Program-made: the position numbers and the translations under genes
The notes under the pieces: model-generated
The model's database searches: none
What the model was told of the DNA's origin: nothing
Seen by the model: only the letters and a program-made list of their open reading frames with translations
From: Gemmatimonadales bacterium
GTDB lineage: Bacteria > Gemmatimonadota > Gemmatimonadetes > Gemmatimonadales > GWC2-71-9
DNA: 64,000 bases
Assembly: GCA_050183505.1 (NCBI GenBank)
Contig: JBFXBG010000001.1
Coordinates: 10,104 to 74,103, forward strand
Reading direction: 5' to 3'
Shown: positions 12,373-15,603 of the stretch, piece by piece
How positions within the stretch are numbered: the first letter of the stretch is position 1
How the letters are laid out: every line of letters begins with the position of its first letter

Positions 12373-12436
12373 GTCCTCGGTCCTCAGTCCTCAGTCCTCA
12401 GTCGTCAGTCCTCAGTCCTCAGTCCTCAGTCCTCAA
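12373..12436. repeat. Heptamer microsatellite (GTCCTCA) about x9
   Basis: Read directly. It overlaps the UDG stop and reads (TGAGGAC)n on the minus strand. Confidence 0.9.
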
Positions 12437-13130
12437 CACCCAGTCCTGCCAGTATCTGTTTCGCTTTCCGGAAGATCCCGTCCCACATTCCGCGCGTGAG
12501 TTTCCCGGTATTGGTATTCTGCCGGCTCGGGTGAAAGGAACAGATGAGCATTCTGCGGTCGGGGAGCTCATGAGCCAGGCCGTGGCCGAAGCGGGGACGG
12601 TCGCGCGGAGCGAGGCGGTTCCACCAGCCGGCGGCCTTGAGGTAGTTCTCCCACGCCACTCTGCCCAGCACGATCGTCACTCGATGTCGCGTCAGTGTGG
12701 CCAGCTCGGCTTCGAGCCAGGGGCGGCAGTTGGCGAGCTCCCGGGCGGTGGGCTTGTTGGCCGGCGGGGCGCAGCGAGCCGCGGCCGAGATGTAGCAGTC
12801 CCGCAAGGTGAGCCCGTCATCCCGGGACCGGGAGTCTGCCTGGCTGGCGAAGCCGGCTCGATGCAGGGCCGAGTAGAGCCAGTTCCCGCTGGAGTCTCCG
12901 GTGAACATGCGGCCGGTGCGGTTGGCCCCGTGAGCGGCGGGGGCCAGGCCGACGATGATGAGCCTTGCCCGTGGGTCACCGAAGCCGGGGACGGGCTTCC
13001 CCCAGTAGGTCCAGTCCCGGAACTCCCGTTTCTTCTCCCGGGCCACTGTGCTGCACCAGGCGCGGAGCCTGGGGCAGCGGGTGCAGCGGGGGATGCGGGT
13101 TTCGACTTCGGCGACGGAGGAATCGGGCAC
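12426..13130 (-). CDS. udgB: Uracil-DNA glycosylase family 5 (UdgB type, 4Fe-4S)
   Basis: CTRC, GLAPAAHGANRTGRMFTGD, RCAPPANKP and FHPSRQNTNTG motifs. Start (GTG 13130) is approximate. Confidence 0.88.
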   Translation of the reverse strand: MPDSSVAEVETRIPRCTRCPRLRAWCSTVAREKKREFRDWTYWGKPVPGFGDPRARLIIVGLAPAAHGANRTGRMFTGDSSGNWLYSALHRAGFASQADSRSRDDGLTLRDCYISAAARCAPPANKPTARELANCRPWLEAELATLTRHRVTIVLGRVAWENYLKAAGWWNRLAPRDRPRFGHGLAHELPDRRMLICSFHPSRQNTNTGKLTRGMWDGIFRKAKQILAGLGVED

Positions 13131-13278
13131 GAGGGGATAGTACCCGTTGCTGGCGCGGAGGTCCAGAATAGGTGGAGATCTCCTTCTCACTGCCAACTCC
13201 CCGCTGTCACCGTATTCCAGTTCTCACCCACATTCTATCAACCGAAGCTACGCAAAGGTCGGATCACACTCGTGACAC

Positions 13279-13307
13279 ACCCCTGTTCCTGTCACCGGAA
13301 CAGGGGT
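13279..13307. other. 11-bp inverted repeat upstream of the 125-bp array
   Basis: ACCCCTGTTCC-N7-GGAACAGGGGT, followed by CATAAT at 13313-13318. Confidence 0.6.
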
Positions 13308-13330
13308 CGCGTCATAATCCGCTCCTATGC

Positions 13331-13693
13331 CCCGGCCGACCCTCATCCACCCGCCGCGTCTTCCGCTTGCCTGAAACCCATCAGGATGACCTGCCCCGGT
13401 TCCTACCCTCACCCCAACCCCTCTCCACTTCGTGGAGAGGGGCCGTAGCCGCGCGTCCGGCCGCCCCTCACACCACCCGCCGCGTCTTCCGTTGCATGAA
13501 CCCCACCAGGATGGCCTGCCCCGGTTCCTACCCTCACCCCAGCCCCTCTCCAATTCGTGGAGAGGGGCCGTAGTCGCCCATCCGGCCACCCCTCACCCCG
13601 CCCGCCGCGTGTTCCGTTTCCTGAAACCCATCAGGATGGCCCGCCCCGGTTCCTACCTTCACCCCAACCCCTCTCCACTTCGTGGAGAGGGGC
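13331..13693 (+). repeat. Three tandem 125-bp units, each a diverged copy of the VWA gene 3' end plus a REP-like hairpin
   Basis: Units start at about 13332, 13457 and 13582. The first 66 nt match 14306-14371 (8 and 10 mismatches for units 2 and 3; unit 1 has compensating indels). The rest is GGTTCCTA-CCCTCACCCCAACCCCTCTCCACTTCGTGGAGAGGGG. Confidence 0.92.
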
Positions 13694-13774
13694 GTTCTGT
13701 CTGGCGCGGGTTTTTCTGCTCCTGATCGCGCTCGATCGGTCCATGCCCTGAAGAGGCCGGTGATAGTATGGGTC

Positions 13775-14170
13775 ATGGACCGTCTCTACCGCCGGCCCCG
13801 CGCACTCAAGGTCGATCTTGCCAGGCAGCTCCGGGAGGCGGCTACCCCGGCTGAGCGTGCCGTCTGGGAGCTCGTGCGCAATCGACAGATGCTCGGCTTC
13901 AAGTTCCGCCGCCAGCACCCCATCGGCGGCTTCCTGGTGGACTTCTACTGCCACGAACTCCGGCTGGTCCTGGAAATTGACGGAGCGGTGCATGCAGAGC
14001 CGGGGCGCGCGGATCTGGATCGGGCCCGCTCGGAGTGGCTTGCCGCGAGAGGGTTCCGGATCCTCCGATTGGCGAACGGTGAGGTGAACCGGGCGAATCT
14101 CCTCACCATGCTTGGAAACCTACTGAATCAGACCCCCTCTCCACGCAGTGGAGAGGGGGGAGGGGGGTGA
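13775..14170 (+). CDS. DUF559 / Vsr-like PD-(D/E)xK endonuclease domain protein
   Basis: ARQLR..ATPAE..W, GFKFRRQHPIGGFLVDFYC, LVLEIDGAVH, D..R..WL...GFRILR motifs. The C-terminal PSPRSGEG is encoded by the right-hand hairpin. Confidence 0.9.
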   Translation: MDRLYRRPRALKVDLARQLREAATPAERAVWELVRNRQMLGFKFRRQHPIGGFLVDFYCHELRLVLEIDGAVHAEPGRADLDRARSEWLAARGFRILRLANGEVNRANLLTMLGNLLNQTPSPRSGEGGGG

Positions 14171-14202
14171 GGGTGAGGTGGAGAGGGGGCAGGGGGTGAG
14201 GG
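14133..14202 (-). repeat. Inverted REP-like copy plus a half copy, right of DUF559
   Basis: CCCCCTCTCCAC-GCA-GTGGAGAGGGGG...GGGGTGAGGG is the reverse complement of the hairpin in the left array. A second GTGGAGAGGGGGCAGGGGGTGAGGG half follows. Confidence 0.85.
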
Positions 14203-14230
14203 TCAGGTGCACCGGGGGCAGGGCCGTCGC

Positions 14231-14310
14231 TGTCCGTCCCGGCCCGTCCCGGCCCGTCCCGGTCGTCGCCGTCTGTCCCGGCCGTCCTGGCCGTCCCGGC
14301 CCGTCCCGGC
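14231..14310. repeat. GC-rich 9-10-mer tandem repeat (CCGTCCCGGC)n
   Basis: Read directly, just after the VWA stop. Confidence 0.75.
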
Positions 14311-14316
14311 CGCCCC

Positions 14317-15603
14317 TCACCCCACCCGCCGCGTCTTCCGCTTCATGAAGTCCATCAGGATGAACTGCCCCAGCGTCATCGTGTTCGTGAAATACGCCTT
14401 CCCGCGGCAGATCTGCTCCACCTTCTTCACGAACTCGACCAGGCTGCGGTCCCGCGCCAGCATGAACGTGTTGATCATGATGCCAGCCCGGCGGCAGTTG
14501 GCGACTTCCCGGAAGGTCTCCTTCAATATGAACGGATCGAGTCCCATCGAGTTCACGTAGACCCTCCCGGCCGGCATGGTGAGCGCCGAGGGCTTGCCGT
14601 CGGTGATCATGATGATCTGCTTCATGTCCTTCTTCTGTCCCGCCAGGATCCGCCGGGCCAGCTTGAGGCCCTCCGCGGTATTGGTGTGATAGGGGCCCAC
14701 CTGGGCCCGGGCCAGCGCGGCGAGCGGGATTTCCTCCGCCGAGTCGTGGAAGAGAACCACCTTGAGGGTATCGCCGGGGTACTGGGTCCGGATGAGGTGG
14801 GTGAGGGCCAGGGCCACCTTCTTGGCCGGAGTGAAGCGATCCTCGCCGTAGAGGATCATCGAGTGGGAGCAGTCCAGCATGAGCACGGTGGCCGCGCTGG
14901 AGCGATACTCGCTCTGGCTCACCATGAGGTCGCCGTACTCCAGATTGATCGGCACGCCGAGCCCCTCGCGGGCGATCGCCCGGCTCAGAGTGGCCGGGAC
15001 ATCGAGGTTGAGCGTGTCGCCGAACTCGTACGGCTTGCTCTCGGCTTCGGTCTCGACGCTGGTGGCCAGGTGGCTGGTCTCGTGTGCGCCGATGCTGGAC
15101 TTGCCGATCGACCCCAGCAGGTTGCGCAGCGTCTTGTAGCCCAGGAAATCGATGCCCTTCTCGGTCAGGTTGAACTCCACCTGCTGCGCGGCCGCGCGCG
15201 CCTCGCCGCCCGGTCCGGTCATCGGCTGATACCCCGCCGGCATCTGGGGCGACTGATCGACGTTCAGGTATCCTTCTTCCACCAGCCGCTGCACGACCCG
15301 GTCGATCAGCTCGGCCAGGTCCCGCTGGATCTGTTTGTCCCGCTCAGGATCCCCGGTGGACTCTCCCCGCAGCGCCTGAAGCATCTCCTGGGTCAGCTGC
15401 CCGGAGTCCTTGAGGGCCTGGATGATGGCCTGCTTGAGTGCGTCCAGCGAGCGGTCTTCACCGGGATCGTCCCCGAAGTAGGGGAACCCGCCACCGTTGA
15501 ATCCCGACTGCAGCAGGAAATCGGCCAGCTGATCCAGCAGCGCCTGCAGGTTCACGGCATCGGCGAGGCCGGGAACGAATCGGGAGTAGGTGGTGAAACG
15601 CAT
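14317..15603 (-). CDS. VWA domain-containing protein (partner of ChlI/MoxR-like AAA+ ATPase)
   Basis: [26 protein letters not shown] and YEFGD motifs. Confidence 0.9.

Follow-up and report, generated by a model that had tools for sequence, protein, structure and literature searches.

Apparent decaying copies of a gene end beside a DUF559 nuclease cassette with inverted hairpin modules in a Gemmatimonadales genome

We find that the DUF559 gene of this contig sits in a cassette of about 0.8 kb, between inverted REP-like modules composed of a 10-bp end motif, CCCTCACCCC, and a hairpin with an 11-bp stem. The three units upstream of the gene had been read in an earlier note either as a guide array paired with a small nuclease or as the footprint of a REP-type element, with duplication of flanking DNA followed by tandem amplification. 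By their sequence, these units look like decaying pseudo-copies of the tail of the neighbouring VWA gene, fused to the left-end module of the cassette, and not like guides. The history that we favour, and consider on balance probable, is that a selfish Vsr-like nuclease cassette with a REP/RAYT-like build was inserted together with a duplication of the VWA end, and that tandem amplification of the end unit followed. If the units are indeed such a scar, the array arose as a by-product, no new guided-nuclease system is involved, and a false lead is removed.

The array occupies positions 13332-13693 of the window (the whole stretch of 64,000 nt that was analysed), where Tandem Repeats Finder reports a 125-bp period in 2.9 copies with 89% matches and zero indels. 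A repeat search of the window returned four copies of a 66-nt repeat (13332, 13457, 13582 and 14306) and four copies of a 25-nt hairpin (13418, 13543, 13668 and 14134). Each unit upstream of the DUF559 gene thus consists of 66 nt copied from the VWA 3' end and, fused to them, a module of motif plus hairpin, as the earlier note had described, and its mismatch counts were exact: compared with the VWA end at 14306-14371, unit 2 differs at 8 positions and unit 3 at 10, while unit 1 shows 6 mismatches and 2 gap positions. The first copy, T1 (13332-13397, minus strand), spans the last 18 codons of VWA, the stop and 11 nt, and its reading frame is broken. It is followed by module 1 (13398-13456, plus strand), which consists of GGTTCCTA, CCCTCACCCC (13406-13415), a hairpin (13418-13442; 11-bp stem when folded), and 14 nt with homology to the 10-mer repeat adjoining the true VWA end. 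Unit 2 (13457-13581, plus strand) comprises T2 (13457-13522) and module 2 (hairpin 13543-13567); unit 3 (13582-13693, plus strand) comprises T3 (13582-13647) and module 3 (hairpin 13668-13692), the latter being the left end of the DUF559 cassette. GGTTCCTA recurs at 13398, 13523 and 13648, and CCCTCACCCC at 13406 and 13531, with the variant CCTTCACCCC at 13656 in module 3. No source was identified for the 8-nt GGTTCCTA, which lies between the VWA-derived segment and the end motif in each unit. In units 2 and 3 the VWA-side homology extends to 83 nt (13441-13522 versus 14289-14371, 84%), so the 14-nt "spacer" after each hairpin is also homologous to the VWA side. Each pseudo-copy contains the last 18 codons of VWA, the stop codon and about 25 nt downstream.

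All three intervening segments derive from 14306-14371, with 6-9 pairwise mismatches in 66 nt; the VWA-derived parts are 85-91% identical to one another and to the native end, and an indel or substitutions at conserved residues, F to V/A and D to G among them, mark T1-T3. The 66-nt segment is confined to the locus, with no further copy in the 4.1-Mb assembly. Variable columns number 3/46 in the hairpin part versus 13/67 in the VWA-derived part; the greater conservation previously ascribed to the hairpin stands as a trend and falls short of significance (Fisher p = 0.06). Between udgB and unit 1 lies a unique spacer of 196 nt, spacer X (13136-13331), of which no second copy was found in the genome or in the loci compared with it. 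It contains the features noted earlier ahead of the array, an 11-bp perfect inverted repeat within 13279-13307 and a CATAAT box at 13313, the latter belonging to a weak promoter-like site on the plus strand (CTGTCA-18-CATAAT, 13289-13318) that matches at 9/12 positions, with 0.2 such sites expected by chance.

The VWA end at 14306-14371 (T4, minus strand; CDS 14317-15603) is intact and native: all 19 relatives whose VWA end could be read retain its C-terminus, GQF/YIL..KT..V(G/S)*. Its stop region holds a perfect CCCTCACCCC at 14314-14323, and among 96 VWA loci this 10-mer stood at the VWA stop in one, namely the present locus. T1 is probably the original VWA end, left beside udgB. The udgB-type uracil-DNA glycosylase gene is annotated at 12426-13196 on the minus strand (PF03167, E 9e-31); its true start is probably the GTG at 13130-13128, relatives aligning from residue 27-31 on. 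A low-depth contig of run X2, apparently from a minor strain, has homology ending at 13135, where it joins 14314 with spacer X missing and continues through 36 nt of VWA-end-like sequence into an end-motif/hairpin module (one contig, depth 2.2, sides of 36 nt).

A comparison with strains lacking the insert had been proposed in the earlier note; relatives show a compact VWA-udgB junction. Among them, at most about 25 nt separates the VWA stop from the udgB start (about 8 nt at the minor-strain joint), and the empty junction has udgB within about 25 nt of VWA in genome G017 and directly abutting it at locus L043. Other small cassettes occupy this junction in two other lineages. In G088 it holds two DUF559 genes and two further ORFs, the cassette end abutting the VWA stop, with no duplication of the VWA end; at L044 a VWA-end repeat with a 22-nt exact core follows mobile mystery proteins A and B. 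The locus shows how small cassettes of unrelated kinds can settle in a junction between genes. A scan of metagenomes yielded 80 VWA loci, none above 85% protein identity and none with the DUF559 cassette or a VWA-end copy of at least 40 nt. A DNA search of 400 family genomes gave no long match, and among the matches listed DUF559 lies beside VWA in G088 only.

The right end of the cassette (14134-14223, plus strand) carries a hairpin at 14134-14158 that is inverted relative to the left hairpins, GGGGTGAGGG at 14164 and 14193, and 29-nt repeats. The right hairpin encodes the last ~11 residues of the DUF559 protein, whose stop codon falls inside the GGGGTGAGGG motif. This architecture recurs. 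An inverted match between upstream and downstream flank was found by BLAST at 7 of the 8 close homologue loci with both flanks, and both hairpins were seen by inspection at the eighth (L025), bringing the count to 8/8; the left inverted match lies about 80-240 nt upstream of the gene in the other close loci, and the module 3 hairpin here lies 82 nt before the ATG. Two paralogous cassettes in G040 share 80% identity over 620 nt; their homology begins precisely at CCCTCACCCC and stops at GGGGTGAGGGCC. As in TIR transposons and MITEs, terminal inverted repeats bound this unit of homology, from CCCTCACCCC to GGGGTGAGGG; a short duplication at the ends of the G040 cassettes was not seen by inspection. 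Loci from Anaerolineales and from Chitinophagaceae show the inverted-hairpin layout as well, in Chitinophagaceae with an inverted repeat that is perfect over 27 nt, and hairpin-encoded C-terminal tails of the PSPRSGEGxRG type end at least 44 of the 117 top homologues, as counted with a regular expression of our own making. The distant DUF559 of G002 is without hairpin flanks. Some genomes carry several DUF559 copies at unrelated loci, and many contigs with close homologues are short. A scan of genome contigs confirmed 8 DUF559 loci, among which L042 is not a real DUF559.

Left-side tandem hairpin units beside DUF559 also occur in G011, G040 and G088; tandem hairpin units were seen at four loci, none of them traceable to a flanking gene, and the G088 unit contains a 50-nt part unique to its own locus. 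The earlier note had proposed that upstream arrays matching the locally adjacent gene would recur at DUF559 homologues; such arrays were not found at the loci examined. None of the other close DUF559 loci (7), nor G088, nor 5 distant loci showed flank-derived units, and no direct repeat of at least 30 nt connected upstream to downstream flank at those 7 or at G088. The 66-83-nt duplication was seen at no other DUF559 cassette examined and is therefore not an intrinsic cassette signature. Apart from G088, neither udgB nor VWA was found next to the other DUF559 loci compared.

The DUF559 ORF (13775-14170, plus strand; 131 aa) encodes a Vsr-like PD-(D/E)XK nuclease and is present in a single copy in the assembly. 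Its earlier assignment as DUF559/Vsr-like is borne out by the match to PF04480 (E 1.9e-31, 108.6 bits versus a cut-off of 20.6); Pfam returned DUF559 and its relative MTES_1575 and nothing else, and the NCBIfam equivalog PRK09767 scored 73 bits, under its cut-off of 218. Searches with phmmer retrieved PDB 3hrl (2e-16) and 3r3p (0.005), and Foldseek with the structure model (pLDDT 81.8, tail 50 or below) retrieved 3hrl (9e-7), 3r3p (8e-5) and 1cw0 (0.036). Residues D56, E67, D69, H73 and D82 are invariant in 39 sequences, and the protein looks intact; a catalytic role of these acidic and histidine residues is described in PMC3239194. The region upstream of the gene (13694-13774, plus strand) is partly conserved in an alignment of 8 homologue loci and carries a -10-like TAGTAT at 13764-13769, preceded by TG and 5 nt before the ATG, which suggests a leaderless transcript. 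A search of sequencing runs listed no RNA run that contains this stretch. PADLOC gave weak matches only (DpdF 6e-5, "homing endonuclease" 8.6e-4).

With the EDxHD homing endonucleases (prototype I-Bth0305I, PDB 3r3p; PMC3239194), the protein shares a homologous catalytic domain with invariant acidic and histidine residues, and a patchy, selfish-looking distribution. It differs in being only 131 aa long without a NUMOD/HTH DNA-binding region, and in being free-standing and intergenic, outside any intron or intein, and flanked by inverted hairpin modules. With the Vsr/VsrA very-short-patch repair nucleases (PMC12907096, PMC3424549), it shares a Pfam clade (Vsr, DUF559, DUF2726) and fold, and here the gene adjoins the deamination-repair gene udgB; unlike them, DUF559 is present in 11/61 relatives only, sometimes in several copies at unrelated loci, and has terminal inverted repeats. 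A Caulobacter DUF559 protein is reported (PMC12907096) as a candidate Vsr-type repair enzyme, so by analogy the gene beside udgB may also have a housekeeping repair role.

The hairpin is dispersed through the genome, with 20 copies of which 16 lie outside the locus, and in 17/20 the end motif stands on one side only. Its counts in relatives range from 1 to 47 copies. DUF559 is present in 7/9 relatives with at least 6 hairpins versus 4/52 others (Fisher 2.4e-5), the cut-off of 6 having been picked after the data were seen, and in 8/16 with at least one hairpin versus 3/45 others (p 4.6e-4); both counts ignore relatedness. G016 (97% complete) has 14 hairpins and no DUF559, which indicates that hairpins can persist without the nuclease. 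Tandem arrays with a period of 60-280 nt are frequent genome-wide, and local tandem amplification of hairpin-bearing units is common, also away from DUF559. Between the cassette and the VWA end, about 8 copies of a CCGTCCCGGC 10-mer (14234-14311) represent a module type of other intergenic mosaics in the genome, and the same 10-mers flank hairpins on contig C105. A reading of the hairpins as plain intrinsic terminators was set aside, the third alone being flagged, with a poor T-run.

These features parallel REP/REPIN-RAYT systems (Bertels & Rainey 2011, PMC3116915; PMC3337134): a low-copy nuclease gene bracketed by an inverted short palindromic repeat, dispersal of this repeat tens of times in intergenic DNA, often in tandem clusters, and co-occurrence of nuclease and repeat family across genomes. 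For DUF559 and the hairpins, the link between nuclease and repeat is the co-occurrence above (7/9 versus 4/52). The difference lies in the enzyme, here a Vsr-like PD-(D/E)XK nuclease (PF04480) and not a Y1 HUH transposase. The absence of an HUH transposase noted earlier holds at the locus and not genome-wide, separate Y1_Tnp genes being present on contigs C12 and C26, flanked by other repeats. By analogy, we tentatively suggest that standalone DUF559 and CCCTCACCCC-hairpin modules may form a widespread cross-phylum partnership of the RAYT/REPIN kind, driven by a Vsr-like nuclease. In such a partnership the nuclease would act on the module by recognition or nicking, keep it in the genome or propagate it, and travel with an inverted copy on either side; in the VWA-derived units we would have an unusual trace of the element entering its target, and the CCCTCACCCC at the VWA stop could have served as a surrogate end, leading to capture or duplication of the stretch up to the true end.

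We regard this partnership as a more interesting lead than the array. DUF559 is a very common family without an assigned function, often annotated "endonuclease domain-containing protein", and in several phyla its genes are framed by inverted hairpin repeats, with C-terminal tails that are often no more than translated hairpin. If the partnership is true, DUF559 gains a role open to experiment, that of enzyme partner to a REP-like repeat family. The partnership may also account for the shortness of many homologue contigs and for the enrichment of DUF559 genes among predicted inversion targets (PMC9881135).

For the locus itself, the favoured history would begin with foreign DNA entering at the VWA end and duplicating that end, so that VWA kept the intact end T4 and the original end stayed beside udgB and decayed. 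Local amplification of the end unit, by unequal recombination or slippage between repeats, would have followed. Duplication of one gene end leaves both neighbour genes intact. Homology-facilitated illegitimate recombination (PMC3240628) would give exactly this geometry: a donor fragment with VWA, its end and the cassette would recombine within VWA and join illegitimately upstream of the recipient VWA end. The REP-type footprint proposed earlier comes close to this evidence, and its basis holds, namely a dispersed hairpin family bracketing DUF559 in inverted orientation, a compact VWA-udgB junction and common tandem amplification; the mechanism of insertion is what we infer.

Alternatively, the tandem duplication may have come first, which we think rather unlikely. 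A 10-mer/hairpin/motif module, perhaps a terminator, would already have lain 3' of the VWA stop, slippage would have duplicated a 125-bp segment over the VWA end and this module, and DUF559 would have arrived later by hairpin recombination or adjacent insertion. Read in the VWA sense, the unit order is VWA end, 10-mer-like 14 nt, hairpin and GGGGTGAGGG, the same as in the C105 mosaics, and tandem duplication of mosaic units is common in the genome without any DUF559. However, this scenario needs a pre-existing hairpin with the orientation of the left module and within the ATG distance range of the close cassettes, and the array should abut VWA, whereas the units are separated from the intact end by the full cassette. 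In addition, a VWA-end copy stands directly against udgB in the minor-strain contig, for which insertion upstream of the original end is a better fit.

Integrative elements duplicate the 3' end of a gene as attL and attR. The present insert likewise lies between direct repeats of the VWA 3' end, with the intact copy adjoining the gene, a pseudo-end left behind and relatives with an empty site. The VWA 3' end could accordingly be an attachment site for small mobilisable cassettes served by a recombinase in trans, the array arising by successive integrations or a build-up of mini-elements, with a copy of the site bounding each. The different cassette at L044 is also followed by a VWA-end repeat, a tRNA-Met gene in this genome is followed by three extra 3'-end copies with short hairpin-bearing inserts, and three tyrosine-recombinase matches (PF00589) lie on other contigs. 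We nevertheless consider such integration improbable: an integrase or other recombinase is absent in and near the insert, where DUF559 is the sole Pfam-matched ORF between the repeats; the duplication is long, with copies 9-15% diverged and no conserved core evident; repeat lengths are unequal (66-83 nt here versus the 22-nt exact core at L044); the pseudo-ends form a tandem array on one side; and the G088 cassettes occupy the junction without a VWA-end repeat.

A functional RNA array is very unlikely. A plus-strand transcript from the CATAAT box would yield hairpin-delimited RNAs antisense to the VWA mRNA end, which would guide the DUF559 nuclease or regulate VWA; the one weak sigma-70-like site upstream, the strong hairpin of the units (folding z-scores of -2.0 to -3.9) and the 85-91% complementarity of the segments to the VWA mRNA end would fit. 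As in CRISPR-type arrays, hairpin-forming repeats alternate with segments beside a nuclease gene. Here, however, the segments are decaying copies of each other and of a single gene of the cell, there are three units with no Cas and no leader, and nothing comparable recurs at the other homologous loci examined. Terminator-like hairpins stand between the array and the ORF, and the hairpin of module 3 is flagged as terminator-like; the -10-like box of the gene lies beyond them, in a stretch partly conserved among homologues. An Rfam search (E <= 1) gave no family match, its sole chance snoRNA match falling outside the array, and the protein, at 131 aa, consists of one nuclease domain whose tail is disordered. 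The guide-array option of the earlier note is therefore not one that we retain.

In two runs of a single study, which may be the source sample, Logan contigs match 12900-13434, 13414-13688 and 13664-14343 with zero mismatches, so the three distinct units are each real sequence; their order and copy number depend on the path taken by the assembler, since contigs break at the identical hairpins. That the three units are an assembly artefact, a mis-resolved repeat of the kind against which the earlier note had cautioned, is extremely unlikely: these breaks permit a graph path skipping units 2 and 3 and the depth of the inner contig is lower (4.4 versus 9.3 and 7.4; 3.2 versus 4.1 and 5.5), but the units differ at 13/67 alignment columns of the VWA-derived part, each is exactly present in contigs from both runs, and the genome offers no other place for the sequence of units 2 and 3. 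Two further joints, 13442 to 14275 and 13443 to 14132, look like cross-mapping of other hairpin modules and were set aside. In another study, run X6 gives joints leading from 14348 through 5 letters to 13399, in a row without side lengths, a hint that a relative of about 91% identity also joins VWA-end-like sequence to a hairpin module.

The ORF at 13775-14170 (+) belongs to the DUF559 family (PF04480, E 1.9e-31) and lies between a gene for a UDG-family glycosylase (udgB, recognised by profile match) on its left and a gene for a VWA-domain protein (CDS 14317-15603, -) on its right. It is the single DUF559 gene of the assembly (G000). A phmmer search against the PDB returned 3hrl (2e-16) and 3r3p (0.005), and the AlphaFold model (pLDDT 81.8) matches 3hrl, the catalytic domain of I-Bth0305I and, more weakly, E. 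coli Vsr, with a C-terminal tail that is disordered in the model (pLDDT <=50). Residues D56, E67, D69, H73 and D82 do not vary among the 39 homologues aligned. The EDxHD composite motif of the I-Bth0305I family is described as containing a magnesium-binding aspartate and a histidine that is the putative general base (PMC3239194), and in a review of the PD-(D/E)XK superfamily Vsr, DUF559 and DUF2726 form a single clade together with the structures 1cw0, 3hrl and 3r3p (PMC3424549). A Caulobacter DUF559-domain protein has been renamed VsrA, with a proposed role in very-short-patch repair (PMC12907096).

The three repeat units upstream of this gene take their first part from the end of the VWA gene. 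Tandem Repeats Finder detects a 125-bp period with 2.9 copies at 13332-13693, and a repeat search of the window finds a 66-nt segment in four copies, starting at 13332, 13457, 13582 and, at the VWA end itself, 14306; within the whole 4.1-Mb assembly this segment occurs at this locus alone. The same search finds the 25-nt hairpin four times at the locus, three copies being in the same orientation upstream of the DUF559 ORF and one at its 3' end. Global alignment to 14306-14371 gave 6 mismatches and two gap positions for unit 1 and reproduced the 8 and 10 mismatches counted earlier for units 2 and 3. Both the DUF559 nuclease ORF and the 125-bp units with VWA 3'-end copies in front of it, as described in the earlier note from the sequence alone, are thereby upheld.

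For unit 2, similarity to the VWA side extends over 83 nt (13441-13522 versus 14289-14371, 84%, genome self-comparison) and therefore includes the 14 nt after each hairpin, a decayed copy of the CCGTCCCGGC 10-mer that adjoins the true VWA end. Each unit joins a VWA end to the leftmost 45 nt of the cassette and to the 14 nt adjoining the true VWA end, and is a copy of the whole insert minus its middle. In nearly all of 30 relatives searched, among them the unpublished genome G014, the VWA protein aligned through its final residue. Its C-terminus, ...GQF/YIL(M/T)DF(M/L)(K/R)R(K/R)T..V(G/S) followed by the stop, is conserved in all 19 of the relatives' loci with a readable end, so that 14306-14371 is the native VWA end and the three upstream segments are its copies. 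Read in the VWA sense, the upstream segments carry an indel or substitutions at conserved positions (F to V/A, D to G) and are decaying pseudo-ends.

The DUF559 gene occurs as a discrete unit between inverted modules at different loci. A protein query gave DUF559 matches in 11 of 61 relatives, and all of these loci were read. All 8 close homologue loci for which both flanks are available have the gene bracketed by modules in inverted orientation, each a 10-bp end motif plus a hairpin: upstream, the module precedes the start, with the inverted match ~80-240 nt upstream, and downstream the hairpin overlaps the final codons of the ORF and is followed by GGGGGTGAGG. BLAST of flank against flank detected this inverted match at 7 of these loci, and the remaining one, L025, has both hairpins by inspection. 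One relative (G040) holds two paralogous cassettes at unrelated loci, 80% identical over 620 nt, and their homology starts exactly at CCCTCACCCC and stops at GGGGTGAGGGCC; the DUF559 unit is therefore a discrete cassette, bounded by terminal inverted repeats of 10 bp with subterminal hairpins.

The same layout, with hairpin variants of their own, is found in other phyla, at an Anaerolineales locus and at a Chitinophagaceae locus whose inverted repeat is perfect over 27 nt; at another Anaerolineales locus DUF559 is flanked on each side by an 89-nt composite module. We also examined the 120 best of 1352 homologues (E <= 1e-10) with an ad hoc regular expression. At least 44 of the 117 with a recognisable core end in tails like PSPRSGEGVRG or SPLSRIRERGxGGEG, which are the translated hairpin and end motif. 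Predicted targets of programmed inversion are reported to be enriched in 'DUF559 domain-containing protein' (odds ratio 14.3; PMC9881135), which fits genes between inverted repeats. Among the DUF559 papers listed, no title or opening of an abstract describes a hairpin-flanked cassette. Many close homologues (P0002-P0120) have a longest recorded contig of just 0.5-2 kb, the outcome to be expected from assembly breaks at the flanking repeats, and some are mislabelled at source as methionine synthase, RecQ or methyltransferase.

The hairpin belongs to a dispersed family. The 4.1-Mb assembly holds 20 copies, 16 of them outside the locus in intergenic mosaics that also contain GGCCGGGACGG-type 10-mers, GTCCTCA heptamers and a second family of hairpins. 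The 10-bp motif CCCTCACCCC or its complement accompanies 17 of the 20 copies on one side only, and of 57 occurrences of this end motif genome-wide, 6 fall within the 1.1-kb locus. We counted the exact hairpin pattern in the same 61 genomes used for the DUF559 search (G014 included). DUF559 is present in 7 of 9 genomes with at least six hairpins versus 4 of 52 others (Fisher 2.4e-5), and with the cut at one or more hairpins in 8 of 16 versus 3 of 45 (p 4.6e-4), counts that treat related genomes as independent and, for the cut-off of six, a threshold set after the data were seen. The DUF559 protein of G002 is a distant member without hairpin flanks. G016 (97% complete, 20 contigs) has 14 hairpins, and neither the protein search nor the family profile search found DUF559 there; in this genome the hairpins either persist without the nuclease or have another partner. 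From cassette architecture and co-occurrence, we infer that the DUF559 nuclease may act on the hairpin module.

Relatives show a compact VWA-udgB junction, and this site has received insertions more than once. The empty junction that the earlier note had asked to be compared is seen in G017, where udgB follows VWA with a GTG start 25 nt past the VWA stop, and in L043, where udgB directly abuts or overlaps VWA; in G006 it lies ~0.4 kb after VWA. In one metagenome contig (L044:4290-5596) mobile mystery proteins A and B (TIGR02612 and TIGR02613, above cut-offs) directly follow the VWA stop, and a VWA-end repeat with a 22-nt exact core comes after this pair, at the contig end. The VWA protein of G088 is the closest to that of G000 (85%) among the matches listed, and its VWA-udgB spacer (L139 = C6:736500-741500) is ~2.1 kb long, with two DUF559 genes (47% and 36% identical to that of G000), hairpin arrays and ORFs of 65 and 189 aa. 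The hairpins of G088 and G000 are identical (25/25) although the nucleases are only 47% identical. The proximal G088 cassette has its right end motif in direct contact with the VWA stop codon, and no duplicate of the VWA end is present at this insertion. None of 95 other loci with a readable VWA end (19 relatives and 76 metagenome contigs) had DUF559 downstream of VWA, and none had a VWA-end copy of 40 nt or more; four of 100 VWA loci were left out, two lacking a stop before the contig end (L008, L078) and two with the 3' end uncovered (L105, L106). The VWA stop region forms a perfect 10-bp end motif in one of 96 VWA loci, that of G000. A DNA search of 400 family genomes included six further unpublished genomes, none of which bears a specific claim.

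No RNA run appears among the sequencing runs listed for this stretch. In two runs of a single study that may have supplied the assembly, contigs match the locus exactly but in pieces, with breaks at the identical hairpins, and the piece 13414-13688 holds units 2 and 3 contiguously. In both runs this piece has roughly half to three-quarters of its neighbours' depth, which may reflect a mixed population with one or three units or an effect of depth estimation. A single low-depth contig of run X2 (depth 2.2), from a strain ~90% identical, links position 13135, which lies five bases before the likely start of udgB, to 14314; 36 nt of VWA-end-like sequence, nine other letters and then an end motif and hairpin follow. 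If this joint is taken at face value, the VWA-end copy on the udgB side is the original end with the ancestral compact junction, and the 196-nt spacer of G000 between udgB and unit 1 (13136-13331) would be a later addition; a search with this spacer found no other copy in the genome or in the loci compared. A run from another study (X6) contains a 91%-identical DUF559 cassette ending at both hairpins and a similar junction of VWA-end-like sequence with a hairpin module, a hint that this junction is older than these strains.

We propose that cassette-bearing DNA entered at the VWA end and duplicated 66-83 nt, which would have left VWA a working end, and that recombination or slippage between the repeats then made the small units. 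The duplication could have come from staggered cuts followed by fill-in, from recombination in VWA on one side paired with illegitimate joining upstream of the VWA end that the recipient already had, or from the VWA stop being used through its resemblance to the end motif; each would give this geometry, and we make no choice among the three. REP/REPIN-RAYT systems are the closest known kind and, as outlined in the sources used, resemble the cassette in architecture, but the cassette is without their defining Y1 transposase. With EDxHD homing endonucleases the DUF559 protein has the catalytic domain in common, but it lacks the DNA-binding region of these enzymes and does not reside in an intron or intein. 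The locus also resembles integrative elements in its duplicated gene end, yet the cassette contains no recombinase. On this reading the array is a by-product of moderate interest, and the partnership of DUF559 with the hairpin is the lead worth testing.

A guide array paired with a small nuclease, one of the two readings offered by the earlier note, failed on every tested feature of repeat-spacer arrays. Recurrence of flank-derived arrays, suggested there as a check, did not hold either: among all loci examined, a long gene-derived direct repeat between the DUF559 flanks is present in G000 only. Tandem hairpin-bearing units do lie 5' of DUF559 in G011, G040 and G088, and in the G088 unit the 50 nt outside the hairpin are confined to that locus, while the hairpin itself is dispersed. 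The intergenic DNA of G000 abounds in tandem arrays with 60-280 nt periods, also beside both Y1_Tnp (RAYT-like) genes. Thus local amplification of hairpin-adjacent DNA is a general habit of these genomes and not a property of a guide system. A -10-like TAGTAT lies 5 nt before the DUF559 ATG, in a stretch partly conserved among homologues, and terminator-like hairpins precede it, which suggests independent transcription of DUF559 rather than transcription from the array.

The intergenic DNA of G000 is unusually repeat-rich for a 4-Mb genome, with 343 local direct-repeat pairs of at least 45 nt less than 4 kb apart, many with periods of ~110-135 nt. Just downstream of udgB, at 12373-12435 of the window, GTCCTCA is repeated nine times in tandem, and the same heptamer arrays are found in the mosaics of C46, C72 and C154. 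Both Y1_Tnp (RAYT/IS200-like) genes (C12:42083-43480 and C26:21004-22103), one of them with an in-frame TGA, are bordered by tandem arrays built from other hairpin-bearing units, whose periods are ~76-112 nt. Not in the window but on C180 (4740-5010), the last ~18 nt of a tRNA-Met gene recur three more times behind it at a spacing of 63-64 nt, with short hairpin-bearing inserts between the copies, a second case in this genome of a tandemly repeated gene 3' end. Finally, a ~2.4-kb segment with two ORFs (C209:1240-3965) is bounded by inverted hairpin modules with end motifs inward and also bracketed by inverted GGGATTGA-type heptamer arrays, and may be another cassette.
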